From: Tubulanus polymorphus | Taxonomy: Eukaryota > Animalia > Nemertea | DNA length: 64,000 nucleotides | Reading direction: 5' to 3' | NCBI RefSeq assembly: GCF_964204645.1 | Contig: NC_134032.1 | Location: forward strand, 4,550,175 to 4,614,174 | Shown here: piece by piece, positions 2,968-63,104 of the stretch | How positions within the stretch are numbered: position 1 is the first letter of the stretch | Layout of the letters: the number at the start of each line of letters is the position of its first letter | Made by a program: the position numbers and the translations under genes | Notes under the pieces: model-generated | Database searches by the model: none | Seen by the model: the letters and a program-made list of their open reading frames with translations, nothing else | Told to the model about the DNA's origin: nothing

Positions 2968-3693
2968 TTAGGCAGCGATGGCAGGACGGTGCGGAATTCG
3001 TAGCTCGTGCAAATACCTCAGCAGATCATTTATGATTTGCGCCTCTCTTAGCCACAGGACAGCCCTGTCTGTAGTGGCAAACCACATCCAGAAATCTTCA
3101 AATTTGTGATGGCATCCTTGCATCAGGCTCCACTCGCAGCCCTCTAGATCTGTGACCATTCCTTCCATGTCTCTGTATGGATACATCTGCTGATAGGTTT
3201 GGATCCATGCTGAGTAGGGCCTAATGTAATTTGGGATTTTGAAGACTTTTCGAGCTTTCATGAGTTTAATGGGCCACTTTCTCAGGGAGTTCTGCTTGAG
3301 GAGTCTTAGGCGCCGGGTAAATTCACTGCGCCTTAGGGGGTATCCAATCAGTCTCCAGCATCTGTATTGAATTGAGAGGTGTTCCCAATGCAATCCGGCG
3401 ATAAATACTGTCAGGAGGTCCTGATACGTTTTTTCTCGGGCCCCTCTTGGGTAGTAGGGATTTTGTAGGCGCCTAAAGTGTTTCTGGCACCATGTCTTTA
3501 TCTCAGACCCATCCGAGATTAATGAATGAAGTTTAATGCTCAGGTCTATTTCTTTTTCTATGCTGAGCGCTCTTAAGGGCATGCACTCGCAGAGGTCTTC
3601 TAATTTCTGTATGAAATTCTTTAGGATATTTGCTATGTCGGCATTATGAACTAAAGGCATTTGAAATTCCTTTAGAGATGTCTTTGCCTCCAT
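2968..3693 (-). CDS. paralog family B protein
   Basis: LQNPYYPR..YQDLLT..IPNYIRPYSAW..YP..WLREAQI aligns with 4066..4802. Confidence 0.75.
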   Translation of the reverse strand: MEAKTSLKEFQMPLVHNADIANILKNFIQKLEDLCECMPLRALSIEKEIDLSIKLHSLISDGSEIKTWCQKHFRRLQNPYYPRGAREKTYQDLLTVFIAGLHWEHLSIQYRCWRLIGYPLRRSEFTRRLRLLKQNSLRKWPIKLMKARKVFKIPNYIRPYSAWIQTYQQMYPYRDMEGMVTDLEGCEWSLMQGCHHKFEDFWMWFATTDRAVLWLREAQIINDLLRYLHELRIPHRPAIAA

Positions 3694-4065: not shown

Positions 4066-4802
4066 TCATGCAGGCCCGATATAGTGAGTGGACAGGGAGA
4101 TCCTATGCAATTCTTTTAAGAGCTCATTTAGGATTTGAGCTTCTGCGAGCCATTGAATCGCATTGCCAGTATAGGGAAACTGCGTGGGAGCGTGATTACA
4201 CTGCCTTTTGCATTCTATCATTAGATTGTCCTCGCAGATTTCTTGCTCTAAAATTACCCATGTGAGTTCTTTGAAGGGGTAGATACTTTGATACTGCCGA
4301 AGCCATTCCTCGTGGGGCTCGGCGTATCGTGGAATGATTAAGGATTTTTCGCTTTTGCTCTCTTCGCTGGCGTCCATGGGTTGGGGGATCCAGTCCTTCT
4401 CGCAGGCTTCTTTCATCCCGTTCAGGGCCTCAGAGAAAATCTTGCGACGGAATCTGCAACCATATCTTTGCCAGCTGATGTAATGATAATACATGCGCCT
4501 CATGCGCGCTGCAATGGATAGTAGTGTCAGGAGCTCTTTATACACCTTTGCTCTGCGGTCCCTTGGATATGACGGAGATTGCAGCTCCTGAAAGGTACTT
4601 TTGATCCGTTCCAATACCTTAAATCCATATTGGATTAGCACATATATGTTTTTTTAGTACTCTCGTCAGTTTGCGGCGCCGTTGTCGGCAGGGTACTGCA
4701 GAGGGTTTCTGTTTTCTGGACGATGGTCTGGATCACAGTTGTTAGGGTGACATCAGGCATTAAAGGATCTGACTCGGCCTCTCGAAAGTGAGCTTCCTCC
4801 AT
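4066..4802 (-). pseudogene. paralog family B protein, frameshifted at an A7 run
   Basis: MEEAHFRE..VQKTETLC (from 4802) matches the paralog N-terminus in a different frame from 4066..4641; one extra A at 4649-4655 joins them. Confidence 0.65.
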
Positions 4803-11756: not shown

Positions 11757-11872
11757 CTCAAACTGATACCAGCAATAAAGAAATGATAAACTGAATTATT
11801 GAGGGCGCCGGATGGGCCATAATATGATTAATAATTTATAGATTTTCTTGCTTACATACATTAGACAGAAAC

Positions 11873-12118
11873 ATGCCAAAACACCCGTCATCCAAAACTA
11901 AACCAGAAATGGCGTCACACCCGACAACCACAGAGATTAGTCTAATAAATCAGGGACTTTCGGCCACCCAAGAGACTGAGCCCACTGACTCGCACACCGC
12001 TGCCGGTCAGACCAAGATGTATGAGCCCCCGATCGATTTTACCTACCCAAACAAGCAGGACTTGTTCGCGGACTGGCAAAATGACTTTCTGGACATAGAC
12101 ACTAGATCTCAAATCTAA
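11873..12118 (+). CDS. small acidic hypothetical protein
   Basis: 81-aa ORF after an AT-rich promoter-like stretch. Confidence 0.45.
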   Translation: MPKHPSSKTKPEMASHPTTTEISLINQGLSATQETEPTDSHTAAGQTKMYEPPIDFTYPNKQDLFADWQNDFLDIDTRSQI

Positions 12119-12406
12119 CTCGCACAGTTTCAGCTATGATATTTAAGTCCTTTATGACATTTATCCAAGTATCGTATATCCATGCCGCACTTATGCAAAG
12201 AGAGTATATTTAACAAGATAGTTATCTATAAACGTGAGATTAGTCATTGTATGTTGCGCATAATTAGCATTGTTTCTCGAGGCGACCCCTTGTCTGTAAT
12301 ATCTTTCACATATCATTGCTCTGAATCTCTAAGGTGAGTCTAGCTAGTCATGAGACAGTCCTCCTCCTTCCTTTTATCTTTTTTTTTTGTTTCTCTTCTT
12401 TTTGGT

Positions 12407-12555
12407 GGTCAGGCCCCTGCGTTGATCAGGACCCTGCGTTGATCAGGACCCTGCGTTGATCAGGACCCTGCGTTGATCAGGACCCTGCGTTGATCAGGAC
12501 CCTGCGTTGATCAGGACCCTGCGTTGATCAGGACCCTGCGTTGGTCAGGCCCCTG
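12407..12555. repeat. 17-bp tandem repeat (GATCAGGACCCTGCGTT), 7 perfect copies plus 2 variant flanks
   Basis: Units start at 12424, 12441, 12458, 12475, 12492, 12509 and 12526; GGTCAGGCCCCTG variants at 12407 and 12543. Confidence 0.97.
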
Positions 12556-12613
12556 ATCTCGAGGGTGCTTGAATAAAAAAAAAATATGGGATGAAAGGGT
12601 GCGAAAATCGAAT

Positions 12614-19752: not shown

Positions 19753-19928
19753 GGCTGGTTCGTGGCTAGGCTAGTAATATAAGCAGAGCGTGCCCTTTTT
19801 TTTAAATCCCTGTCAAATTTGTAGGTTGATTCTAAAAAAAAGATTATATACATGGGGGGGGGATACAGGGGTCAGACCCCGCACACATAGCGTCCACTCA
19901 TACCATTCACATATATATATATAGATTG

Positions 19929-20207
19929 CATTCATCACATTCATTCAGATTTACATTCAGCACATTCATTCAGATTTACATTCATCACATTCATTCAGAT
20001 TTACATTCATCACATTCATTCAGATTTACATTCATCACATTCATTCAGATTTACATTCAGCACATTCATTCAGATTTACATTCGGCACATTCATTCAGAT
20101 TTACATTCAGCACATTCATTCAGATTTACATTCAGCACATTCATTCAGATTTACATTCGGCACATTCATTCAGATTTACATTCAGCACATTCATTCAGAT
20201 TTACATT
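19929..20207. repeat. 25-bp tandem repeat CACATTCATTCAGATTTACATTC(AG/AT/GG) x11
   Basis: Units every 25 nt from 19936 to 20186. Confidence 0.97.
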
Positions 20208-20280
20208 GACAGATATTTATATACAGATTCCATTCAGCACATGCACACCCAGGACCCTGCCACACGCACTCGCATGCCAC

Positions 20281-20630
20281 GCCTCTAGCCGGCTCCCACC
20301 TCTGGCCACATCTAAGATTGGGGGCTCATCAAGCATCGTTGCGCCAACGATCCCGCCACAGTAGTCGCTCTTAAGTTACCAGCACCAAGGCTCCCTGCAC
20401 ATTTATCGCTCAATGAGCCATAATTGTCCAAGGACCCCGTTAGGTGCACTTCATCCAAGCCAAAGCTTAACGGATGAGGGGCAACCCGCCTTCAGAGAAT
20501 CAGGTCTTTTGCAGGAGCATCCTGCGCAGGACCTTGATATTCTCATCATTAGGCTGTTAGAGCTTTCTTGTCGCGGGCATTTGCTTTCTCCCAATCTCAG
20601 ATGTAGACAGCTGTAGGAGCCGGCTGAGGT
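20281..20630 (-). ncRNA. candidate structured RNA (long closing stem, internal hairpins, box C/D kink-turn)
   Basis: ~40-bp imperfect inverted repeat 20281-20324/20589-20630; nested helices; GCCT-A-ATGATGA-GAAT...ATTC-T-CTGA-AGGC on the minus strand at 20554-20488. Confidence 0.55.
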
Positions 20631-20635
20631 ACCAC

Positions 20636-20745
20636 GCGCGCATTCACACGCATTTACGCACACATTCACACGCACTCACATACACATTCGCGCACATTTA
20701 CGCACACATTCGCGCGCACTTACACACACACTCATACATATCTAC
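20636..20745. repeat. degenerate CA-rich microsatellite (CACACATT-like)
   Basis: Seen directly in the sequence. Confidence 0.8.
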
Positions 20746-21064
20746 ACCTCCGCAAGGGAGGAACAACATGAATTTATTTACAGAAAGATACACTAATTGA
20801 CCTCATAGGGAGATCGGAAATGACAACAGATATAGATTTTTTTTCGCCACCAAAGCGCGGTGACTGGTTTTTTTGGTTTTGGATTAAATGCAGATTACAA
20901 TACAATACATACATTCCTGTGCTCGTCGCCACGGCAGCGGCAAGCCCCTTTTGCTTCCTCGAAGCCCCTGACAGCTGTCAGGTGTTCACTGTCCTCCGCA
21001 TGCGCCCTTGCGCGGAAACATTGTTTGGATGCACCCGCTTCTCCGGGGTCGCGTCCTTGCGGGC

Positions 21065-23890
21065 CTAATGCCTCCTGCCTCGCCCGCCTTCCATGGCACT
21101 CCTGGCCTCCCTCTGGGCCCTAGCCTCAAGCACCTTCAGGGTCTGCTCCAGAGTGAGCGCACTGCTCCCCAACGGGGATAGTGGTTTCCTCGCCAGACTG
21201 GCATCGGCGGCTGGCGGCTGCCGCGTACTCACAAACGGGTCCCTGCGATGAAGCGAGGGGTTCATGCTATGCATTGAGAATCTAGGGCCCAAGGAAGGGG
21301 GCCCTACATTCCTACGCATAGTCATAGTAACCTCTTGCTGCACTTGAGACACGTTACTTCCGTCAGCGCTCTGCTGCACAGTAGTAACCTCTCTAGTCCG
21401 CTGACTCGTTTGTGAAAACGCGGGCGACGCTGGCCTCCTCTCTCTCTGCCTCTGCTCCATCTCTGGAGCCCAAGTCCTGCACAGTTTGCGATGAGCAATC
21501 TCCACATCAGCCACAGACACCCCAACCCTTTCCGCACTATCCACTCGCAGAGCGAGGATTTGCGAACTCTCATCGGTAAAGGCTTGGACCACGTGCACCA
21601 TTGCACGCAGAAAAGCCTCCAGCCGCCGATTTGCATCGGCCGGACTATTTGTAGATGCCCCTTGCGGCTGCACATACAAATCGTCATACGGGCAGGGCTT
21701 GCGCCTCGTCTCATATCTTGCCTCTTCCTCATCGTCTTCATCCATTCGTCTCTCCACGACACTACTGCCTGGCCGGGCGTAGACATCCATGTCTGGCTGC
21801 CTGCTGGGCCCTGAAAAGCCATCAAACGTGATCCTCTGTCTTACTGGTATGTTCTGAGACTGGGCATTGCTGCCCTGCCTCGTCGATACTACCTCTCTAC
21901 CAAGAAGGTTTTGAGGCATGCCCCAATGCTCTTGGGACATAGAGTAAGACTGAGGGCCAACGATTGTTTCTCTATCAACCTTGGGCGGTGCATATCTGTC
22001 GATACTGGCGCCCTGCTGAGAGAGCTGTCTTTTCAGGGTCTCTCCCTCTTCCACAAGGAGATTCATCCTCTTCTCAAGCTGAGCCCTATTTTTATACTCT
22101 TCATTGAGGGCCATGGCAGCGTCCCGACAGTCAGTCACTGCCTCTTGCAAGCTCTGCTCTCTCTTAGACAACAGCTCTCGCAGCTCTCCGATGTATGTCT
22201 CCATCTTCGCTCTCTCCTCCTGCATCTCCATCCTCAGAGCACCAAGCTGATGCTCTTGCGAGCTCATACAGCCTTGCAGGCGCTCGTTCGCTTTGCAGCT
22301 CTCCACAAGCTCACCATGGCTGGCGATGAGCTCATACTCGACCATTTCGGCTTTCTTTTTCAAGGTATTAATGTAATCATCTTTGCGTGCACCCTCCTGA
22401 ACCAGGCAGCTGCCCTCGCTCCTCAGATCCATTATTACCTTTTCCAAGTCAGCCGCCACCTGCTTCCCAGCTTGGACCTGACGAATCAGATCCTCCTTCT
22501 CTGCCTGGGCGCTAGCCGCATTGGCCTGCTCCCGTTGCAGTTCCTTCTGGAGCCATTCAGCCTCGTCCATGAACTTTTTCTTCTCCCCTAAGAGAGTCTC
22601 TACTTCTGTCACCATCGTCACGACATCCGTAATGCCGTCGACTCTGTGAAAGGGGTGGAGTTTCTCCAGCTGTTGAGAAAAGCTCACTAAGAGGCAATCT
22701 TGCCCCTGAATGAATTTCTCGACCTCTGGAGAGAGATACTCAACACCGTCCACAGGCACTTCACCCCCTTCCTGCGAGTCCTCTGTCTGCAGCACTGCCC
22801 CAAATGCGCCCGTCTGCCCATTGGCATCAGAGGCATTCTGCACCGATCCAGTTCCGTTCGGATCTACTGGAGGGACGACCACGGTCACAACCGTATCATC
22901 CTTGTCACTGACTGCCCCAGTTCCGTTCGGATCTACTGGAGGGACGACCACGGCCGGAACCGTATCACCCTTGTCACTGACTGCCCCAGTTCCGTTCGGA
23001 TCGACTGGAGGGACGACCACGGCCGGAACCGTATCATCCTTGTCACTGACTGTCCCAGTTCCGTTAGGATCTGTTTGGTCAGCGACCACGCGCTGCAGCG
23101 AGTCATCGCCATCACTATCACCGACACCAGCGTTCACAGATGTTTGCACATCTGCTTGGCCACCATCACTGACAGCGCCACCGACATTAGCGTTCGCAGA
23201 CATTTTCACATCTGCTTGGCTACCATCACTGACAGCGCCCTGAACAGGGCCACCATCACTACCTCCGCCCTGAACAGGGCCACCACCGACATTAGCGTTC
23301 GCAGACATTTTCACATCTGCTTGGCTACCATCACTGACAGCGCCCTGAACAGGGCCACCATCACTACCTCCGCCCTGAACAGGGCCACCACCGACATTAG
23401 CGTTCACAAATGTTTGCACACTTGCTTGGCTAAGGTCATCGCCCTGAACAGGGCCACCACCGACATTGGCGTCCAGAGCTGTTTCCACATCTCCTTGACC
23501 AAGGTCCTCACCCCCGACCCCAGTAAGGGACGGGAGATACTTGTTCCATCTTCCCATCCCAGTGGTCCAGGTCTGAAGGTTTACCAGGCTCTCGCCCTGA
23601 AACTGCAGACTGGGATCAGGCTGGGCAGTGCTACTCGGATAGTTCGTCATCGGCAGGACATTGCTAGTGTCTGCGGCTGGGTTACCAACCACAGGCACTT
23701 GCCCGGTCCCACCAAAGAAGAAGGGAGTATCACCGACAAAGCCAGATGACAACACGGGGTTGTCCGGTTCAAACAGGTTCAAAGCGTTGAATGCCTGAAC
23801 AGGGAGGTCTGCCCCATCCGAAGATGGTGTAGTACTCGATAGATTTGCGTGCGACATATTGACAAAATTTTGGCGATATGCAAGAAACAT
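21065..23890 (-). CDS. 941-aa protein with N-terminal tandem repeats, central coiled coil and disordered C-terminus
   Basis: ANVGGGPVQG and VVVPPVDPNGTG(A/T)VSDK repeats; long central heptad region. Confidence 0.8.
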   Translation of the reverse strand: MFLAYRQNFVNMSHANLSSTTPSSDGADLPVQAFNALNLFEPDNPVLSSGFVGDTPFFFGGTGQVPVVGNPAADTSNVLPMTNYPSSTAQPDPSLQFQGESLVNLQTWTTGMGRWNKYLPSLTGVGGEDLGQGDVETALDANVGGGPVQGDDLSQASVQTFVNANVGGGPVQGGGSDGGPVQGAVSDGSQADVKMSANANVGGGPVQGGGSDGGPVQGAVSDGSQADVKMSANANVGGAVSDGGQADVQTSVNAGVGDSDGDDSLQRVVADQTDPNGTGTVSDKDDTVPAVVVPPVDPNGTGAVSDKGDTVPAVVVPPVDPNGTGAVSDKDDTVVTVVVPPVDPNGTGSVQNASDANGQTGAFGAVLQTEDSQEGGEVPVDGVEYLSPEVEKFIQGQDCLLVSFSQQLEKLHPFHRVDGITDVVTMVTEVETLLGEKKKFMDEAEWLQKELQREQANAASAQAEKEDLIRQVQAGKQVAADLEKVIMDLRSEGSCLVQEGARKDDYINTLKKKAEMVEYELIASHGELVESCKANERLQGCMSSQEHQLGALRMEMQEERAKMETYIGELRELLSKREQSLQEAVTDCRDAAMALNEEYKNRAQLEKRMNLLVEEGETLKRQLSQQGASIDRYAPPKVDRETIVGPQSYSMSQEHWGMPQNLLGREVVSTRQGSNAQSQNIPVRQRITFDGFSGPSRQPDMDVYARPGSSVVERRMDEDDEEEARYETRRKPCPYDDLYVQPQGASTNSPADANRRLEAFLRAMVHVVQAFTDESSQILALRVDSAERVGVSVADVEIAHRKLCRTWAPEMEQRQRERRPASPAFSQTSQRTREVTTVQQSADGSNVSQVQQEVTMTMRRNVGPPSLGPRFSMHSMNPSLHRRDPFVSTRQPPAADASLARKPLSPLGSSALTLEQTLKVLEARAQREARSAMEGGRGRRH
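22847..23470. repeat. coding tandem repeats (60-bp units and nested longer units)
   Basis: CCAGTTCCGTTCGGATC recurs at 60-nt spacing; CCCTGAACAGGGCCACCA recurs repeatedly. Confidence 0.9.
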
Positions 23891-28509: not shown

Positions 28510-28528
28510 CAATTTACTAAAAGGCCCT

Positions 28529-28768
28529 ATGTATGTAGATAAGATATTTAGGATGCAGCTCTTTCAAAGAATGCTGGTCGTGGCCCTGATCTTTTGTGTT
28601 GGCATCCTTGCCACTATGGGACTCGTAGAGATCTCTCACTACTTCATGGAGCTGCTCCTTGCAGGAGAAACAATGTTTTGGGCCACTGTTCCGCATTCAC
28701 ACTTTAAAGAGCCGCATAATAATGCATCGCGCTTGGCGCAGGGCCTTGTAAATCGTAGTAGGGCTTGA
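28529..28768 (+). CDS. small membrane protein
   Basis: TM MLVVALIFCVGILATMGL; upstream TATAAATA. Confidence 0.55.
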   Translation: MYVDKIFRMQLFQRMLVVALIFCVGILATMGLVEISHYFMELLLAGETMFWATVPHSHFKEPHNNASRLAQGLVNRSRA

Positions 28769-28881
28769 ATCGTCTTACCCCTTTTTTTTGCGCAGGGGCG
28801 CGCGCTATTGAAAAGCAAAAGACCCCCGTAGAGCGCAGGGAGGCAAAATATATAGTACTTAGAAGGAGCAGGCCCTGCACA

Positions 28882-29104
28882 ATGAAACGGCAAACCTGGA
28901 TTTTGGTCTTTGGGATTGCCCTTTTGGACCCTGTCAAGCAGCGCCCCTCTGCCTTTATGCGCAGGAGAGAGCATGCCCCGTCCTGACTGGAGGTATAAGG
29001 GCATGGCCCGCTCAGTAGCCTCGCGCCCCCGGTCTTTTCATGGCTGGTTGCGGGCAACACCAGTAATTTGGTTCTCGTACGCGGTCCCAAAGGGCAGGCC
29101 CTGA
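28882..29104 (+). pseudogene. possible small secreted protein split by a +1 frameshift
   Basis: MKRQTWILVFGIAL plus WTLSSSAP in the next frame gives a clean signal peptide. Confidence 0.35.
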
Positions 29105-29195
29105 CAGGCGCATAAAGGCGGCGGTGCTCTTTTTGGCGCGCAAGGGCGTTCATTATTTTTTTATAGTAATCGCCGCTTATAGATCTTTTGTAATC

Positions 29196-29420
29196 ATGCC
29201 TTCAACACATTCCGCGATGGCGCGCGCTGCGATTCTCTGCGTCTTTATGGTGACCATGAGCGTCGTTATTGTCATGCTGGCCTGGGCTGTTTATGGCCTG
29301 GTTAGGCGCTCGCAGGAGCACACAGCGCTCGAGCACGCAAAGCGCTCTCTGTGGCATCTCATTCCTCGTGCAGGGCAGGAGCATGCGCTGTCCCACAATC
29401 TGCCGCCGCTGGGAATGTAA
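29196..29420 (+). CDS. small membrane protein
   Basis: TM AILCVFMVTMSVVIVMLAWAVY. Confidence 0.6.
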   Translation: MPSTHSAMARAAILCVFMVTMSVVIVMLAWAVYGLVRRSQEHTALEHAKRSLWHLIPRAGQEHALSHNLPPLGM

Positions 29421-29565
29421 GCGCCCCCCCCATCCCACCTTGCCCATTATAGGTCCATGCCCTGATCTCTTATATCTTTGCCTTTGTGCCGCATGAGGCG
29501 CCATCGGCCCCTTTAGCTGATCTGTTTTTTTTTTTTTTTTAAATAGGCAAGAGCAGGCGCTGCTA

Positions 29566-31926
29566 TCACTGGCCGATTTCGCGAATCAGGTGATAAACGA
29601 CAATGTAGTCGGCGCATTTAATGTCTGTGGCTTTGTCGCTCGACTGTATATAGCTAGATAAAGGCTCGTCGGACAGAATCTTGAAGCCTTGGCGCGAAAA
29701 CAGTTCAGTAAATTCTTCGACGAGCATCAGGGGCTCTGTCTCTTCGGTGCCATGGCCGAATTCGGTTTCGATAGAGACATGCGTTCCATTGATGAGTGAA
29801 AGGAACTTAACCAGACCCAAATCAAGGGCCTCCCCGTCATGCAGGATCTTGGCGATTTTGCTGTAGTTGTAAGAAATGATCAGGCAGTGGGCGCCCACTT
29901 CTATTATGTGGCTGAGGACGCTGAACATGATGTCTGCCTTGGCCGGCTCGAAGCAGTAGTGAAAGGCAAAGACTGAGATCATTGTGTTAAAGGTCTTGCC
30001 ATTCAGGTTTGTGACCATGCGATCCATGGATTCGGGCGATGTAAAGTCGCCGTGGAATAGGCAGAGTTTGTCAAACAATTGCTCTGCTTCAATGCTGCGG
30101 CCCTCGCACATGCGAATCAGGCCGTCGCCGAGGTCGAAGCGGGAGGAGTCCAGATTCAAATAGCTGAGGATGCGATCAGAGGACGACAAGATCGATTTAA
30201 AATAGCCGAGCTTGCCCCCTCCTACGTCGAAGATTTCCATGCCGGCGCGATCAGACAGAAACTGCTCAATGGCGCGATAGCAGAGTTGGCTAATATTGCG
30301 GCGTATGGGCGAGGAGGCCACCTGCCCGCTAAAAGACTGCTCTCGAAAGGACTCTGTTTTGCCAAAGATGTCGGGCCACGAGATCAGGGCCACCCCCACA
30401 TACGATGCCATGCAGGCGCGCAAGCTGTTTGGGTAGGGCTTTTCGGGGCGATCCCTGATGGCCGTCAGGAGGAGGCCGCGCTCGGTGTCTTCCAGAGTAA
30501 ACTCATAGATTTGCCCCTCCTTGAGATCGCCGATGTTGCTCTTAATGATGACTGGGCTGTTGATCTGCGACTTTGTGATTAAGTGAGAGGTTATGCAGGC
30601 CATGCTGTCTGAGACTTTGCTCGTCGCGTATGCCAGGCCATGCTGATAGAGCAAATCGATGCTATTGAGCTCAGGGGGCTTGTCCTTTAAAATGGTGTGC
30701 TTCAGGTACGGCTGGGGCTCTTTGCCATATGTCAGGATAGTGATGATTGTGCCATCCCGCGGCAGATCACTGCTTTCGCCCCATGCCACGCATTCTTTAT
30801 AATCGGGAAAATATCTTTTTTTGCTTAAGACGATGTTGGGCGACATGCTATGATAGTCTTCTGAGATATCGGCCTCGATGGCATTTTGGACGCTAATGGT
30901 GTTAATAGCATGCGCAGGGAGGATTGCAAAGACATGAAATCGGTAGGGGGGCTGGGCGCCGCTCACTACCTGCGTCGTGGGCAGGATCAGCTCTCCATGC
31001 AAGACTTGCGTGCAGCTGCCCAGCACTTTCAAAATCGCATCAGTCTTTGGCGCGCTCAAGTTCAGGCGCATGCGCGCAACGTCGCTGGGCCCTAAGATGA
31101 GGCTCTCCGAGAATAGATAGATGCCTGCGCGTTACACGATCACCATGGACTTGTGAGCGATGCTGGGAAACATGTAGGCATCGATGCCATCGACCTTTGT
31201 AGAAAACAGGATCTTGTGCTCCATGGACTGGATGTTGCGCCAATGTCGCGGCTCGATCGTCTTTGGCTTTACTTTTCCGAGGGCAGTGGATATCTTCTTT
31301 ATGTCTGGAAAGCGCTTGGAGGCGATGATGGCGCCTATTGCCTTTTGCATGCCCTCCTGAAATTGCATATAGGCATTTGGGGCAAATGCAAAGGGAAAAT
31401 AGCCAAAGAGGTGGTCGGGGTTGTCAGGGGCCAGTTCCATCTCGATGGCAGCCACGCAATAAATGGCCTTGCGCGGATTTCGCATTGAGCGCAGTTCCCA
31501 GAATTTCTTGTCAGGGGCCTGCACATCGATGTCGAGTTTGCCCTTGGCGATATTGATCTTCATGGTGTACTCTTCTGCATAAGTAATCTGAGGCAGCTGG
31601 CGAGGAATGATGACGCGATACACCACTGAGATGTCGCCTGAGATGTCTTTTGTGTTGCAGGGAATGGTTTCTTCAGTGGAGTGGTGATATCGGCATTCTC
31701 CGCAGCCATACAAAATGGTCTCTTTGCGCGTTTTAAGGTAAGAAATCGGCAGGGCGGACAAATCCAAAAAGCGATAGACGCGGCGCTGCTTCTTAGCGGG
31801 CATATAAATCCCAATCTCATAAAAATAGGTAGTGATTGCATCCTTTTCGGATAAAAAATATTCTTCTAGTTGCATGAAAGTGCCAAGTGAAACGGGCACG
31901 GATAGCTCATACTCTTCTCTACTCAT
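29566..31926 (-). CDS. mRNA capping enzyme (triphosphatase-guanylyltransferase-N7 MTase), interrupted by one in-frame TAA at 31132-31134
   Basis: EYEL and IEMEL (TPase); KVDG, LHGE, DGTI, NSIDL, RPEKPYPN (GTase/OB); DVGGGKLG, FAFHYCF (MTase); both ORFs are in the same frame. Confidence 0.88.
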
Positions 31927-33262
31927 TATGAAGAAGAATGCTGGGATACTTTATGTATGGATGGCGCAGGGATCCAGTTGGGGTAAAGCCGTGGTGCTCA
32001 ATAGTTACAGACCGAAAGATATCAGGGATTGTCTTTGTCTCTGTTAAAATGGCTATTAAGTGTAAAATGTGCTCAGCAGTGCCTGCGACTTTGGCGCGCA
32101 CCATATTATGGACCCCCTCTGCCTCGCATATCAAAATTACGCCCTTTTTATCGGCAGAGATCTCAAACTCGGAGGCCACGCCTTTGGTTTGGAATGTGAA
32201 TTTATGCTTATAAATGGGCCGCATGTTATTCAGGCTCCACTGCTTATCCCACAGTACAATGCCCTCGATGCTCGACATATCATGGCGCTGATTAATCTTT
32301 TCTGTGATGTCCTCCAGCGATGAAAGATCGATCTTAATGGCAGTCTTGAGATTTGGATATGAGCGCACGTCGAATGCCTTTATCAGTTTAAGCATTTCCT
32401 CATAAGTCCTATTGGGCTCTGCTGGGGATACAAAGTTAAACCACCCAAAGTTGATGCAGTCGTAGTGTTTGGAGAAGAGGCTGCTACAAATACGACTTGG
32501 CTGGACGCCTTCTTGGAACGCTTCGAACTCAAGAATGATAGGAGTACCTGTGCAGACAGCCGCGAATTCCATGATAGGCACAAGCTGCGGGGGGCAAGGC
32601 AGCTCCAAACCTCTGCGAGTATAGCACTTGGCTTCCAGTGTCTGAGTGTCTTGCTTTATCCGCTCAACTACACACACAAGGCGCAGGCCATCCCATTTGA
32701 TCTCGCCGATATATTTGCTCAGGTCTAGGTTTGGGGCATTTTCGAGCTTATAGGGTGAGCAAGGGTAGTACTGATGGAGGGCGCCCTCGTGCCAATAGCT
32801 AATCACGCGCATGCGGTTTAGGAGCGATGTGCCCATAGTGCGGAGAATGGCGTGAATGGTCGTGGGGTGATGCCCTGGGTGGTCTACGATTGAGGGCCCA
32901 AAGAGCTGCGCTGATGTAGTAGTCAAATTCAGAATAAGGGAATAATTAATAATCGTGTAGCTGCCTCTGATCCTTGTGCCTGGAGCGAAAGTCAGGTCGA
33001 TGCTGCAATAATTCACATGATAAAAGCAGATTTCATTGCCTGTTTTGCGCGCAGCGGTCGCCGGACCAATGAGCACGGCCCATTTGCACTCACTGACCTC
33101 GTGGCCTTTGGGCAAAATCGCATCCGAAAAAAGGGCGCTTTGGGCAGGATCGATGATGCTTAGCATTTGCGCGATATCGGAGGCGATCTGATAAGCGCCA
33201 CTCATCCGCTTAAAAAAATGAATAGGCATCTCGTTGACTTTGCTCGATTTAACATGCTCCAT
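31919..33262 (-). CDS. ATP-dependent DNA ligase
   Basis: EIKWDGLR, YTRRG, EGIVL, YKHK, HGFTPTGSLRHP. Confidence 0.9.
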   Translation of the reverse strand: MEHVKSSKVNEMPIHFFKRMSGAYQIASDIAQMLSIIDPAQSALFSDAILPKGHEVSECKWAVLIGPATAARKTGNEICFYHVNYCSIDLTFAPGTRIRGSYTIINYSLILNLTTTSAQLFGPSIVDHPGHHPTTIHAILRTMGTSLLNRMRVISYWHEGALHQYYPCSPYKLENAPNLDLSKYIGEIKWDGLRLVCVVERIKQDTQTLEAKCYTRRGLELPCPPQLVPIMEFAAVCTGTPIILEFEAFQEGVQPSRICSSLFSKHYDCINFGWFNFVSPAEPNRTYEEMLKLIKAFDVRSYPNLKTAIKIDLSSLEDITEKINQRHDMSSIEGIVLWDKQWSLNNMRPIYKHKFTFQTKGVASEFEISADKKGVILICEAEGVHNMVRAKVAGTAEHILHLIAILTETKTIPDIFRSVTIEHHGFTPTGSLRHPYIKYPSILLHNE

Positions 33263-57599: not shown

Positions 57600-60500
57600 A
57601 TGACTCATTATCCGCACAAAATTCATTACATCAGCATGGGCCCTTCCACTGATTTTTCGCGCCTCTGCACTGCGAAGGTGCCCATCAATTCGCCTGTCGA
57701 GAATTTTTATTCGGTAAAAAATAATCAGGGGGTGTCTTCGCCCTTTATGGGCATTTCTAGCGGCGTCTCTAAATGCCTAACATGCCTTCAGAGCAATTAC
57801 AAACAGTGCCAAGGCCACATAGGCGTGGTCATCAACTCCCTGACATATATCAATCCTATTCTTTCGGATGCACTGACCACTTTGTCTACTCTGTCTTGCG
57901 GCAATTGCGGCCACATTGGGGCCTCAGTGACAAAAAAGGCCCAGCATCTAAAGAGCCGCTCCATCCATGAGATCACCTTGGCGCTCAAACTGATGAAAGC
58001 CACTACCTCGGCGCGCCAGCCCAAGACCTGCGAGAATTGTTTTATGCCCATGGTCCTGTATAAGCGGCGCCCCAATTGGCCGAGCTTGACGCAGACAGTC
58101 AAGGGCATCACTGGAGATATGATGTCGAGTGATTTGGATGCCCTGCGAAAAAAGCTCCAAAGCAACAAAAATTGGGAAAAGCTCTTTGGCCAGGATTCTT
58201 ATCAGCACTTGCTGGCCAGCATCTTTTCCAATATGATATTGATGGTGCCACCCTCAGATCTGCACACATACAAAAACATGAGCACCTCCATTCCGCAAAC
58301 ATGCATGTTAAAGGTGAATTACATTGCCCTGATCCGATTAAATAACCAATTTATGTCACCTACGCCCAATGACAAGGCCGCGATCCAGGACGAGCAAAGG
58401 ACACTAAATAAGCACTTCTACGATGTCTTGTCCATGATCTTTTCAAATAAGCAAGACCCCCCTCAGCGCGGCATGCAACACAAAAAGATAGGGCCGCAGC
58501 ACCTCTTAGACATTGGACAAAAAGATGGGCCCCTGCGCAAAAGCATGCTGGCCACGACCTCTGGCGCCTCAGGCCGCGAAGTAGCGTGCGCCAACTCTAA
58601 ACTCGGCTATAATGAAATTTCCATTTCGCAGTATGTCGCCAAATTAGTAAAGCGCGAATGCCATGTCAACCATGTAAACATCAATGCGATGAGGGCCCTC
58701 GACCGCACAAATGTGGATGGGTACCCGCGCCTGCACAAGATCTTCAGGCATGGCGTGTGGTATGATCGATCGCACCCTGACTTTGCCACCATAGACTTGG
58801 CTGTGGGCGACAAGATTCAGCGCGATACGATGAATGGAGACAACGTCACCGCATGGCGCCCGCCTACCCTCTTGCTCAGCAGCCACAACAATGCCAGCGT
58901 GGTCGTCCTGGACAACCCTGATAGCAAATCGGCAGGCGCAGAAGTCAATCCCACAACTATGTGCAATGCCCTGGTTGGCGACTTTGATGGCGATGCAATT
59001 TTCATTTGCTATGGGGCGCCCAGCACCGTGCACGGCGATGTCAAGATCCTGCTCGGCATGGACACGCGCTTACGAAACATTAAGAACTGCGACTTTGTGT
59101 TTTGCATCACTAACAATGCCATCACAGGATCGCTCCTCTGCACCTTAGACCCGCAGCCAATTAGCCCCGAGGCTATGCGCACCATCCTCGCCGACTTTTC
59201 CCTCGGGCCCGATGATCAGGCGCACTATTATCAGAAGTTCCTGACTACGCCGGGCACCACTGCGGATGCCATCTGCCTGTTTTTGCCAGAGAATTTGGAT
59301 TACGAGGGCAAGTGCCGCTTCGACGTCCCATGCGACTTTGTCGAGAACCCACTTCCTGACAAAATTGTGATCAAAAATGGTAGATATGTCAGCGGCGCCA
59401 TAACGCCCAGCATCATCGGCAAGGGCTCCACTAACACGATCTGGGATGTGCTGTATGCGTCGCATTCGTCAGGAGAGTGCATGAAGATTATTCACCGCTT
59501 TAGCCGCATGGCCGAGTGCGCCCTTTCCTACATTGGCTACACGAATGATTTTTGGTCAGTGGGGCCCAACAAAGAAATCGCCCAATCGGTGCGCCTAGAA
59601 GAAAGGGTCCTGCTTAAGAAATCGTCAAACCGCTGCAAAATCTTAGAAACCATTCAGTTCATGGATGAAGACACAGTGATGATCCCCTTTGTGAGCGAGG
59701 CCATGGCAGAGCTGACACCCGAAAAACACAAAGACATCATTTTGAATACTTATCCAGGCGGCACCAAGAACATGTCTCTCATGCTGATTGGCAGCGAGAA
59801 ACCCAAGTTTCCCCTTGTGGCGCAGGCCTGCGGCAATGGTGGGATGCTGTTTTTAAATGATAATCTCACGCGCATCCCTCGCAATCCGCGCCTCAATCCC
59901 TTTTCTAAAGACAACAGCACCGACATTCGCGACTATGGCTACATGCACCACACCTTTGCGAAGTCCATGCCGCTCAAGCAGATAGTTCTCCAATCAGCCG
60001 AGGCGCGCTTTGCCCTCATCGAGCGAAAGGTCGGAACGCAGGCGCCGGGCACCATCTCGCGCTATAAAAAAATAAACATGAGCCCCATTTGCAATCTGCC
60101 GTCGGGAATAATCATTGACACGCCCATTGACTCCCATCCGCGCATTATGAGCACCTGCTATGGCATGTCCGGAGGGCGCCCCGAGCTCATTCAGCTAATC
60201 AGCATCGATGACATCCTGCAGCGCCCGCCCGATCTGGTCGTGGGCCTGCTGCAAAGTAATGCGCCGGGCTCTGCGCAAGTGAGCGCGTATTTGATTCGGA
60301 TGTATGAAGAGTTCTTTGAGCACTGCTGCACCCAATTTAATCGCATGCACGACATGCCCTCAGAGACTAAGTATGGGCGCAATTTCGAGGTGCTGCTCAA
60401 CTTCTGGAATATTAAGTGGGACTTTGGCAAACTGCAGCCGCCGGGGCAGACCTCAGTAGACATTTATATGGGTTTCCTCCATGCACTGGCCTACATGCCC

Positions 60501-61760
60501 TTTGGCCTCGAGGCGCTCAAGGATGGCATGCCCCTGCCCCCTTACAGAAAAAATGCAATTGCCCCACTCTTTGTGTGCTTTTTGTCAGCGCTTCCGCTCG
60601 CAGTGGCCGAATGCGTAGAGCCCACCATTTTGAGCAGGCGCCTGAATGAGCTGTATGACCGCATCGCAGAGCGCCTTATTGCAGATTATTCTATGGTGGG
60701 GATGCTCAGCGCCTGCGCCCTCACCGAAGAAATGACACAGAATTCGCTCAATGCGCCCTCCACGAATAAGGGCGCCAAAGAAGAAATCGAGTACTTTAAG
60801 CGCATTATCGATACTGGTTTCCCTGCCGATAAATACGATACTGCCTTTTGTGAAATGGAGCAGATGGAGCAGAGCTATGCCGTCTATGTGTATACCACGC
60901 TAGGCCATTTAAATCCGCAGATCACTGTCTACATGGCGCTGCCTGAAGAGATTTTGGCCAATGACATCGTAGAAGAATTTGACAATATGATTTATGTTGT
61001 GTGCGACGTGCTGATTTCTACTATTCGCTCTTATGGGCTGTCGCCCATGCGATTTTTGCAATTGCTGCTCCTTAATAACAACAAGCGCATTGTCTTTATT
61101 GGCAGCGGCACACACAGTCTGCGCCTGCTGATTTACATTCCCTCAAACATTCCTTCCCGCAAAGAGATCGATAGTGGGCAGGCGCCCCTGGTCTACACCA
61201 TGATGCATCAATATATAGAAAAGGCCATCCAGAGCATCCACGTCTTTGGCGTCGAAGGGATTGCTAAAATTGAGCTCATCAGCTTCGAGCGGCTGAAGAT
61301 CGTAGACAATCAGATCGTGCGCCAAAAGGTCAAGGGGCTCAAGGTGCATAATAATGGGCTCAAGGCCCTGCTCTGCATCAAAAACATCGATATCTTTAAG
61401 GTCATCTATGAAAACCCCTCGGTTCATGAGCAGTACTTTGGCAAGATCAGCGCCATGAATACATTTGTGCACAATGCGCGCAATTTCTTTAAAGGGCAGA
61501 TCACTGCGCATGTATTTACGATTAGCGACTACTCATTCCGCAATGCCAAGTTTGTGCCGACCAATGAGTGGTTCGTGCAGAGCAACTTCCCAGAGCGCTT
61601 CCTCCAAAATGCGGCATTGTCGCGCCCCCAGCAAAAGATCATGTCTTCGGTCTTAAATGGCAATCGCGCCTATGTAGATGACCCCATTAGCTGCATGATA
61701 TTGGGCAGCAACATCCCATATGGGAGCTCTGCATACTGCATCGCCGACTATTTCTCATAA
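57600..61760 (+). CDS. rpb1: DNA-directed RNA polymerase largest subunit
   Basis: CLTC..CQGHIG clamp zinc site, RPPTL, GDFDGD, bridge helix GTQAPG, EEMTQNSLN, GSNIPYGS. Confidence 0.93.
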   Translation: MTHYPHKIHYISMGPSTDFSRLCTAKVPINSPVENFYSVKNNQGVSSPFMGISSGVSKCLTCLQSNYKQCQGHIGVVINSLTYINPILSDALTTLSTLSCGNCGHIGASVTKKAQHLKSRSIHEITLALKLMKATTSARQPKTCENCFMPMVLYKRRPNWPSLTQTVKGITGDMMSSDLDALRKKLQSNKNWEKLFGQDSYQHLLASIFSNMILMVPPSDLHTYKNMSTSIPQTCMLKVNYIALIRLNNQFMSPTPNDKAAIQDEQRTLNKHFYDVLSMIFSNKQDPPQRGMQHKKIGPQHLLDIGQKDGPLRKSMLATTSGASGREVACANSKLGYNEISISQYVAKLVKRECHVNHVNINAMRALDRTNVDGYPRLHKIFRHGVWYDRSHPDFATIDLAVGDKIQRDTMNGDNVTAWRPPTLLLSSHNNASVVVLDNPDSKSAGAEVNPTTMCNALVGDFDGDAIFICYGAPSTVHGDVKILLGMDTRLRNIKNCDFVFCITNNAITGSLLCTLDPQPISPEAMRTILADFSLGPDDQAHYYQKFLTTPGTTADAICLFLPENLDYEGKCRFDVPCDFVENPLPDKIVIKNGRYVSGAITPSIIGKGSTNTIWDVLYASHSSGECMKIIHRFSRMAECALSYIGYTNDFWSVGPNKEIAQSVRLEERVLLKKSSNRCKILETIQFMDEDTVMIPFVSEAMAELTPEKHKDIILNTYPGGTKNMSLMLIGSEKPKFPLVAQACGNGGMLFLNDNLTRIPRNPRLNPFSKDNSTDIRDYGYMHHTFAKSMPLKQIVLQSAEARFALIERKVGTQAPGTISRYKKINMSPICNLPSGIIIDTPIDSHPRIMSTCYGMSGGRPELIQLISIDDILQRPPDLVVGLLQSNAPGSAQVSAYLIRMYEEFFEHCCTQFNRMHDMPSETKYGRNFEVLLNFWNIKWDFGKLQPPGQTSVDIYMGFLHALAYMPFGLEALKDGMPLPPYRKNAIAPLFVCFLSALPLAVAECVEPTILSRRLNELYDRIAERLIADYSMVGMLSACALTEEMTQNSLNAPSTNKGAKEEIEYFKRIIDTGFPADKYDTAFCEMEQMEQSYAVYVYTTLGHLNPQITVYMALPEEILANDIVEEFDNMIYVVCDVLISTIRSYGLSPMRFLQLLLLNNNKRIVFIGSGTHSLRLLIYIPSNIPSRKEIDSGQAPLVYTMMHQYIEKAIQSIHVFGVEGIAKIELISFERLKIVDNQIVRQKVKGLKVHNNGLKALLCIKNIDIFKVIYENPSVHEQYFGKISAMNTFVHNARNFFKGQITAHVFTISDYSFRNAKFVPTNEWFVQSNFPERFLQNAALSRPQQKIMSSVLNGNRAYVDDPISCMILGSNIPYGSSAYCIADYFS

Positions 61761-62032
61761 GATCAGGCCCTCCTGCCCCCTCGCGCCTCGCGGCAACCAT
61801 ATTGTTTTTTTTTCACTCGCACGCGAAAACCCCTAAGCCGCCCCTTTGCGAATCTTTGTGAATGGCTGCGGGCGGCGGCGCAGAGAGCACAAGCAAGGGC
61901 CCCTGACGGATGCTTGGGAAGGGCACATTCTGCGCAGGACTGCCCTTTTAAACATAGTCTTAATCTGCGCTCATTGGCGAATTTGCTCGCGCGCGCCAAG
62001 AAAAAAAAAACATAATCAGGCACCCTAAGATA

Positions 62033-62380
62033 TTAATGCATCATGCTGTCCAGATCATTCTGGAGGTTTCGCGTGTGCAGGACTGATGTGTTTTGGTTAG
62101 ACCGGTGCCCTGCGTATGAATGCATGGCCACTCCTCTGTGCATGTTGGTGCTGTCGCGCTCGAGTGTCTCAATGTCCACAGAGGTGATCTGAGGAGGCGG
62201 ACTAAGGAGGTGATGGCTGTCTTGGGGCTGCCTTAGATTTTGCGGAGGCCTTTGAGATGGCGAATCAGTATAATTGTGGCGCATATAGCCCATCGCGAGG
62301 TTGGGCTTTCGGTTCAGGGCATCGAAATTGACCGGATGCTTCACAAACACATGCGTATTAGGAATTTCGGTAACTGACAT
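62033..62380 (-). CDS. hypothetical protein
   Basis: 115-aa ORF with poly(T) downstream. Confidence 0.55.
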   Translation of the reverse strand: MSVTEIPNTHVFVKHPVNFDALNRKPNLAMGYMRHNYTDSPSQRPPQNLRQPQDSHHLLSPPPQITSVDIETLERDSTNMHRGVAMHSYAGHRSNQNTSVLHTRNLQNDLDSMMH

Positions 62381-62621
62381 GATCGCCGTCTTCGTGCCGG
62401 ATCTTTCGGTTGTCGTGCCAATTTAGCTCGTTCTGCCCGTATGTAATTCGCGGCGCCAAATTTGCTTGGGCCAAATAGCGGGACTCGTTAGTTCTGATTT
62501 GTCGCAGGACCTCTGTCGGCTGATAGATCTTGTCAGGCTTGGACAGGTTATTGAGCTGAATGCGCTGTGGATGGTGGGCCTGTACCTTGTGCAAAATCTT
62601 ATAGATTTGGTCTCTATCCAT
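62358..62621 (-). CDS. hypothetical protein
   Basis: ORF from MDRDQ. Confidence 0.55.
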   Translation of the reverse strand: MDRDQIYKILHKVQAHHPQRIQLNNLSKPDKIYQPTEVLRQIRTNESRYLAQANLAPRITYGQNELNWHDNRKIRHEDGDHVSYRNS

Positions 62622-62714
62622 GCTTCCTATAGATAAAAAAAAATACAAATGAAAGGACACAGCAGGCCGCTCTTAGTCAAATGCATTTTAAAAGATGATA
62701 TGACCTGCCTTTTA

Positions 62715-63086
62715 TTATTTTGGCTTCCAGTACTCCATGGTGAACGCCTTACCTGATTTGACGAAGGCGTCGTGTTTGGCCTTGAGCCTCATGTATTCGC
62801 TCACAGCATACCCATTGGTGTCGACTCCAAGGACTACTCCTATGGGCGGCACCGGTATCATCCACTCGTGCTTGCCCCATGTGATTAGCTGGTCCATATA
62901 CCAATTGTAAAGGCCCCTGTTCATGTCCATGCTCGCGGCCGTGAACGGAGCGATTTGCGCCAGGGCCATTAAGGTATCTGTGGCAAAATTATAGGGCGGA
63001 CGCATCGCAGGATTAGGGGGCCCTCCAGGAAGGATCGAGGCCTTGGTCCCTGCTTCAGGCATAGAGCGCTCAGTATTTGCAGCCAT
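62715..63086 (-). CDS. hypothetical protein
   Basis: ORF from MAANT. Confidence 0.55.
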   Translation of the reverse strand: MAANTERSMPEAGTKASILPGGPPNPAMRPPYNFATDTLMALAQIAPFTAASMDMNRGLYNWYMDQLITWGKHEWMIPVPPIGVVLGVDTNGYAVSEYMRLKAKHDAFVKSGKAFTMEYWKPK

Positions 63087-63104
63087 CGCGGGTCGCAAAG
63101 AGTC

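Follow-up and report, generated by a model that had tools for sequence, protein, structure and literature searches.

NORAD, the described RNA closest to the locus reported here, is stated to carry 18 Pumilio sites, UGUANAUA or UGUANAUN (PMC6677556), and an account of its architecture describes them as spatially clustered by structure (PMC7617650). The herpesvirus HSUR RNAs also bind Pumilio, which is presented there as a cofactor whose activity is left unaltered (PMC13692250), and EBV is reported to encode a box C/D RNA, v-snoRNA1 (PMC13597479). Here we describe an element in a 64-kb stretch of DNA (the window, meaning the whole stretch analysed) where two kink-turn motifs and, in the flanks, 15 Pumilio-type matches point to a probable viral RNA sponge for host RNA-binding proteins (Table 1). 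That the minus strand carries a functional RNA element is, by our own estimate, quite probable.

Like NORAD, the candidate has many UGUANAUA/UGUANAUN sites in repeated units, and long-range pairing would join distant sites. It differs in being viral, with no expectation of kinship in sequence, in its length (~1 kb versus 5 kb), in having mostly 7/8 sites and in its predicted kink-turn core; to our knowledge, no central kink-turn core is known for NORAD. Among known systems, NORAD is the one that the element would most resemble in how it works. Like HSUR1 and HSUR2 of Herpesvirus saimiri, it would be a noncoding RNA of viral origin that has Pumilio elements and perhaps microRNA sites; the HSURs, however, are small Sm-class snRNAs for which Pumilio is a cofactor, whereas the candidate would treat Pumilio as prey, and the core lacks an Sm site of the pattern that we take to define one. 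Snu13/15.5K kink-turns are carried by the U3 3' domain and the U4 5' stem-loop. The core likewise has two kink-turns, one C/D-oriented and one B/C-oriented, the latter (kink-turn A) lying presumably as the U3 box B/C motif does, and kink-turn B has the GCC-AAU-GA...GA-GGC pattern of U4. Unlike in U3, the nesting is inverted and there is a 40-bp terminal stem, and Rfam gave no U3 or U4 match at E<=10. A virus-encoded box C/D motif is common to the candidate and EBV v-snoRNA1, but here it sits inside a larger fold with a paired interior, no guide to the rRNA pieces searched was found, and the virus probably has its own RNA polymerase. A kink-turn with AUGA...GA in the likely 3' UTR of the 941-aa gene also recalls SECIS elements, in which the spacing from AA to the closing GA is usually 18-27 nt. 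We rejected a SECIS because this spacing is 40 nt, the apical adenosines misfit and the upstream ORF stops at TAG, not UGA.

We read the window as belonging to a divergent, previously undescribed large DNA virus that would be pox/asfarvirus-like. It is packed with ORFs, the majority without any family match (Pfam etc.). RPB1 (1386 aa, 57600-61760) had as its top PDB match 8q3b, which we take to be the ASFV RNA polymerase (E 2e-20, ahead of Pol III); a helicase ORF matched VETFS weakly (E 4e-4), and profile searches gave weak Rpb6 and cap methyltransferase matches as well. Among Pokkesviricetes-like markers, a capsid gene was not identified in the window ORFs, most of which match no family. Six RPB1 relatives share 25-37% identity, a further search gave no nearer relative with a name, and comparison with the egovirus preprint, as far as the accessible text goes, gave no placement. 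L7Ae, PUF and RRM domains were not found with Pfam in 68 ORF queries, most of them matchless. A tract of at least seven T lies within 150 nt 3' of 36 of the 52 ORFs on the coding strand, and one of at least seven A after 15 of 51, in an ORF list that includes one probable shadow ORF. Because T tracts follow most ORFs and poly-T termination is reported for ASFV (PMC7163114), we infer that the T8 tract downstream of the core is the terminator type of this genome. TATAG stands upstream of 11 of 51 ORFs, versus 7 on the opposite strand, and a promoter consensus could not be derived.

Table 1. Features of the element and its surroundings (window coordinates)
Feature	Position	Strand	Basis and remarks
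Structured core	20281..20630	-	multibranched, ~40-bp terminal stem; predicted MFE -177.1 kcal/mol, z -12.66; no Rfam match
Kink-turn B, box C/D type	20488..20554	-	descriptor match, in MFE fold at 0.0 kcal cost
Kink-turn A	20322..20592	-	descriptor match; unbulged strand 20592-20582, bulged strand 20335-20322
25-nt tandem array, 3' arm	19926..20207	-	11 relaxed Pumilio sites UGUAAAUC, one per unit
Degenerate UG-rich array, 5' arm	20634..20746	-	opens with canonical Pumilio site UGUAGAUA at 20746-20739
Canonical Pumilio site UGUAAAUA	20775..20782	-	motif match
Canonical Pumilio site UGUAUAUA in linker	20218..20225	-	predicted mostly paired (0.28 unpaired)
Canonical Pumilio site UGUAUAUA	19845..19852	-	3 nt ahead of T tract
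T8 tract, putative terminator	19834..19841	-	first T>=6 past 941-aa ORF stop, 1223 nt downstream
Two A runs on minus (T8, T7 on plus)	20837..20874		promoter parts or antisense terminators
941-aa low-complexity/coiled-coil ORF	21065..23890	-	mRNA would read through element; no informative Atlas match
CCACGC direct repeat, possible target-site duplication	20277-20282 and 20632-20637		sequence match; low-complexity flanks

None of 100 shuffles folded as well as the core on either strand, the plus strand reaching -152.5 kcal/mol (z -8.85) against the lower minus-strand energy. The interior on its own still gave z -6.05 (minus) and -5.76 (plus), so the core is not one inverted repeat. The terminal stem, which the preliminary description had drawn as ~40 bp between 20281-20324 and 20589-20630, was recovered as 37 pairs in four segments (20629-20590 with 20282-20322, pair probability 1.0), and its three C.A mismatches on the plus strand do become G-U on the minus strand. 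All interior helices named in that description were found in place. On the minus strand the main helices had predicted pair probabilities of 0.87-1.0 and two short ones 0.69-0.74; AAGC/GCUU is paired in the plus fold and the interior-only minus fold, and is suboptimal in the full minus fold, at 1.2 kcal/mol over the minimum. In a 1009-nt fold, the core was unchanged and the terminal stem retained. In a 150-nt tile scan the core tiles ranked 5 and 13 of 1278, behind repeats of the neighbouring ORF, because its signal rests on long-range pairing. Across the window, local folding excess was greatest on the mRNA strand of repeat-coding parts of the 941-aa ORF (22601-23800 and 21201-21350, minus).

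Rfam searches of the window gave nothing at gathering score, and near the element there were 16 weak matches, the best of them far below the cut-off; the core appears to belong to no catalogued family. RNase P/MRP, SRP, tRNA/tmRNA and hammerhead were ruled out: neither Rfam nor ARAGORN gave a match, and the P4 pseudoknot and CUGANGA core were absent. The core has one loose CR-V-like pattern match, no CR-I and no loop-loop pseudoknot of at least 4 pairs. At the tip of the C/D hairpin, 20520-20531 is a perfect 12-nt palindrome that may permit RNA dimerisation or an alternative hairpin. The overlapping stretch 20531-20510 presumably resembles the U6 stem-loop, a likeness that we dropped given that Rfam had no U6 match and the stretch is this palindrome. 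The core had been said to have no credible ORF; a 67-codon ATG frame does occupy plus 20413-20616, and it gave no Pfam match at E<=1.

Our kink-turn descriptor (C stem of at least 4 pairs, 3-nt bulge, tandem GA, NC stem of at least 3) found two motifs on the minus strand of the core and none on the plus strand. Kink-turn B, the box C/D motif recognised from the start, proved real as a motif: it has a GCCU/AGGC C stem, an AAU bulge, tandem GA/AG, a U.U and a 6-bp NC stem, its strands (20554-20539 and 20500-20488) contain the RUGAUGA and CUGA boxes, and it caps a paired hairpin. Of two strict C/D candidates in the window, it is the only one with an extended stem II. Kink-turn A is newly found, having been missed in the preliminary description. 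It forms the junction between the terminal stem, at its inner end, and the interior, and has a 5-bp C stem, a GAU bulge, tandem GA/AG, a G.A and a 3-bp NC stem. Its C stem is present in the interior-only fold and absent from the MFE fold of the full core, where 4 bp of it cost 1.2 kcal, or 5.5 kcal if the whole motif is forced unpaired. Motif B is thus of the box C/D type and motif A of the standard type, with a bulge ending in U. Dinucleotide shuffles yielded two or more kink-turns in 0.14% of 5000 cases, and in 0 of 5000 once the bulge had to end in U; the rate was 0.26% among 20000 loop-only shuffles, and 1 of 364 window tiles had as many. Most known kink-turns are reported to carry C-G beside the bulge (PMC5579392), whereas both of these have U-A. 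Both predicted kink-turns would bind host L7Ae-family proteins.

A few wobble pairs had been taken to favour the plus strand. Helix-internal G-U pairs number 6 on minus and 4 on plus, which is not decisive either way. What largely removes the doubt about strand is that the second kink-turn, the 15 Pumilio-type sites and the putative terminator all lie on minus.

The core had also been described as bracketed by two CA-rich arrays. Both are present; rather than brackets, they probably belong to the RNA that includes the core, and may be its working part. The 3' array (19929-20207) has a period of 25 and 11.2 copies, and the 5' array (20634-20734) a period of 22. By itself the 3' arm is predicted to be weakly structured (-10.7 kcal/mol); its 4 RUGAUGA and 16 CUGA we can put down to no more than UGA richness. 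Of the window's 16 canonical UGUANAUA sites, counting both strands, four belong to the minus-strand flanks (20782, 20746, 20225 and 19852), with A, G, U and U at position 5. In the 591-nt flank, leaving out the core and the 25-nt array, four compare with 0.31 in shuffles and were reached in 1 of 20000 shuffles (0 of 10000 in a second run); other intergenic DNA predicts 0.10 for the flank. When all gapped 8-mers are allowed, some one of them attains 4 copies in 2.5% of 3000 shuffles. Fifteen of the window's 52 UGUANAUN sites are on minus 19852-20782 and zero on plus there. One strand therefore has many PREs, 4 canonical and 11 relaxed, above background. These 11 all derive from one amplified unit and match at 7 of 8 positions; permuting the 25-nt unit gives a relaxed site 1.8% of the time, and outside the array the relaxed pattern has P 0.017. 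Predicted unpaired probabilities for the Pumilio-type sites are 0.28-0.72 in the 1009-nt fold. Two canonical sites fall within TATATA tracts, which are possibly plus-strand promoter DNA.

The explanation that we prefer, tentatively and with slightly less than even confidence, is a viral RNA of ~1-1.2 kb, transcribed on its own or as a 3' extension of the 941-aa gene, that would use a kink-turn scaffold to act as a Pumilio decoy in the manner of NORAD. The viral polymerase would copy the minus strand from about 20830, or from the 941-aa gene, and halt at T8 (19841). The core is then predicted to fold, its terminal stem drawing the 5' and 3' arms together and clustering the sites. By analogy with kink-turn biochemistry, 15.5K/Snu13, eL30 or a relative would sit on both kinks and stiffen or protect the core. 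Multivalent binding could then sequester Pumilio, so that viral mRNA decay is eased or Pumilio-aided antiviral sensing blunted. A motive for such a decoy lies in reports that Pumilio promotes mRNA decay, PREs normally working in 3' UTRs (PMC11602169), and that it assists LGP2 sensing in human cells (PMC4207803). The preliminary description had proposed a viral noncoding RNA or an RNP scaffold or decoy; a structured minus-strand RNA is supported by folding, motif statistics and the failed guide test described below, whilst a decoy role would be plausible.

In its boldest form the element would be an abundant ~1-kb NORAD mimic, with an L7Ae-clamped double kink-turn core and arms that condense Pumilio and perhaps miR-181 or TDP-43; this we hold to be rather unlikely. 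Were it so, it would establish a class of viral decoy RNA not yet known and be the group's first structured ncRNA of its kind, a claim that we regard as equally doubtful. In the titles and opening parts of abstracts available to us, from a literature with few subscription journals, no such RNA was found for this virus group. The prevailing view is that large DNA viruses which encode their polymerase counter the host mainly by proteins. A decoy, if true, would add a noncoding arm to them, would be a rare viral use of the kink-turn beyond the guide snoRNA, and would offer a compact natural test of the NORAD principle that structure clusters binding sites.

From the stop of the 941-aa ORF (21065) to 19841, the minus strand has neither a T>=6 tract nor a credible ORF, so the element lies in a 1.2-kb read-through tail, in its own ~1-kb unit, or both. 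An independent unit would possibly begin near the A runs at 20874-20837, which may contain promoter parts for it or else terminate an antisense RNA from plus; TATAG at 19920 and T8 at 20837 bracket the region as a possible plus antisense unit. No long complementarity of the element to other viral genes was found, the longest being 12 nt. The alternative that survives best, though we judge it unlikely, is a cis-acting 3' UTR element, in which sites and core, as the tail of the 941-aa mRNA, would repress, time or localise that message. The missing T tract upstream of 19841 suits it, as do the absence of any TATAG-like minus-strand start 5' of the core and the report that PREs usually act in 3' UTRs (PMC11602169). 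If the element were only a 3' UTR, Pumilio would repress that mRNA rather than be decoyed. Against it, an ORF-less tail of 1223 nt is atypical where 36 of 52 ORFs have a T tract within 150 nt, the A runs resemble the A8 upstream of the adjacent 153-aa minus ORF, and the core is self-closed in the manner of a stand-alone RNA.

If the decoy reading is right in outline, its prey may still be misnamed. In the 25-nt array there are also 19 miR-181 seed matches and 33 copies of GAAUG, which makes the prey ambiguous, and the miR-181 and GAAUG motifs fit the arms about as well as Pumilio sites do. The arms would in that case sponge miR-181 (given a vertebrate host) or UG binders of the TDP-43/CELF type, the Pumilio matches being secondary, which strikes us as improbable. 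The 19 UGAAUGU and 8 UGAAUGUA correspond to the miR-181 7mer-m8 and 8mer as given in the source consulted (PMC11317165), a permuted unit carries a miR-181 match only 0.5% of the time, and a GUGUGAAUGAAU ligand occurs in the part of the TDP-43 literature available to us. Outside the array, GAAUG is enriched (7 vs 1.94, P 0.0015), a count inflated by the repetitive 5' array, whereas the miR-181 7mer-m8 appears there once (P 0.38), and many microRNA families could have matched. Either sponge requires an animal host, at which an RHIM-like motif in the window hints. This motif (PF12721, E 8e-4, barely below cut-off) occupies residues 210-224 at the C-terminus of a proline-rich ORF (2196-2885, minus) and would point to a cell-death modulator as well.

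A further reading is a DNA-level element: either an origin of replication that has iterons and a dyad, or a CA-rich tract into which a MITE-like element inserted, the fold being a by-product of inverted repeats. Tandem arrays, AT-rich TATATA tracts and dyads do cluster here, wobbles are near even between strands, the core folds as DNA too (-86.9 minus, -72.8 plus), and cumulative GC skew peaks near 20 kb; the skew, however, tracks gene content and runs flat past 24 kb. CCACGC on both sides of the core is why we keep a MITE origin under consideration. The direct repeat, 6 bp long, may be a target-site duplication, but there are 5 copies of CACGC in the flanking DNA, and the terminal repeat (83% complementary) stands out of register with CCACGC. 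The element is single copy in the 64 kb, and Pfam detected no transposase. Since the interior folds without the terminal repeat, and two kink-turns and the Pumilio sites are strand-specific RNA signals, we put little weight on a DNA-level element relative to the RNA decoy.

Very improbable is a viral box C/D guide snoRNA precursor, with 20549-20492 cut from a longer RNA as in EBV v-snoRNA1 (PMC13597479, as far as consulted): exact C and D boxes with a terminal stem, degenerate CUGC/AGGAUGC inner boxes and a weak Rfam similarity to snoZ161_228 (20.9 bits vs a cut-off of 45) speak for it, but the would-be guides pair with each other, which bears out the original remark that a paired interior makes this no typical guide snoRNA. 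In 18 non-host eukaryotic rRNA pieces from 13 of 52 loci, the longest duplex was 11 nt, not conserved and no longer than in shuffles (mean 8.6-8.9, maximum 11), and we found neither a free 10-21-nt rRNA guide ending beside D/D' nor an Rfam score above the cut-off. The 52 loci come from a search for a eukaryote-type 18S end motif, which turned up at least 52 stretches in genomes of prokaryotic species; the two that were scanned hold eukaryotic rRNA genes, i.e. contamination. One eukaryotic rDNA scan of IMG/VR was empty.

Homologues of the element were not found by blastn against phages or by DNA patterns in IMG/VR and JGI metagenomes. The 21 loci that the patterns returned (IMG/VR, JGI) were rejected as chance matches, none aligning beyond the pattern or having a 4-of-4 C stem, and protein-led IMG/VR locus searches with the 941-aa ORF, RPB1 and P0030 found nothing. 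Four sequencing runs containing the element were listed (X1-X4), from one study and two samples, with no RNA run among those listed. The X1 contig covers 20212-22800, is identical to the window there and may stem from the source of this DNA. X2 and X3 contigs, from one sample, skip 136 nt (20455-20590) across a 4-nt microhomology without GT-AG ends, one end of the skip being the inner end of the terminal stem. A polymerase jump over the structure is the probable cause, a natural deletion being the other candidate. Several chimeric loose ends in the X2/X3 sample map nowhere in the window, and X4 covers the unskipped form up to 20489; we therefore read the skip as a probable artefact and do not use it as evidence. 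In X4, all three listed differences (20431, 21849 and 21941) are A>G on plus at depth 4-4.5, which could reflect error or editing of an antisense RNA. That at 20431, in one contig (depth 4.3), would convert a U.G to C-G and may be an error.

Several features elsewhere in the window were noted in passing. Three neighbouring ORFs at 29566-33262 (minus), one with a weak cap methyltransferase match, one with a weak ligase-like nucleotidyltransferase match and the last unassigned, may be a split capping apparatus. Those at 2968-3693 and 4066-4503 (minus), in the left-hand same-strand gene run, are adjoining paralogues (32% identity over 130 aa). Three further long stretches lack a confident ORF (61761-63104, 28510-29565 and 11757-12613). 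The palindrome CAGGNNCCTG has 19 copies versus 1.3 expected, 9 of them in a 17-bp tandem array (12410-12555) and 10 dispersed, including one near the core at 20250-20259; it is likely a DNA-binding site of a viral protein.
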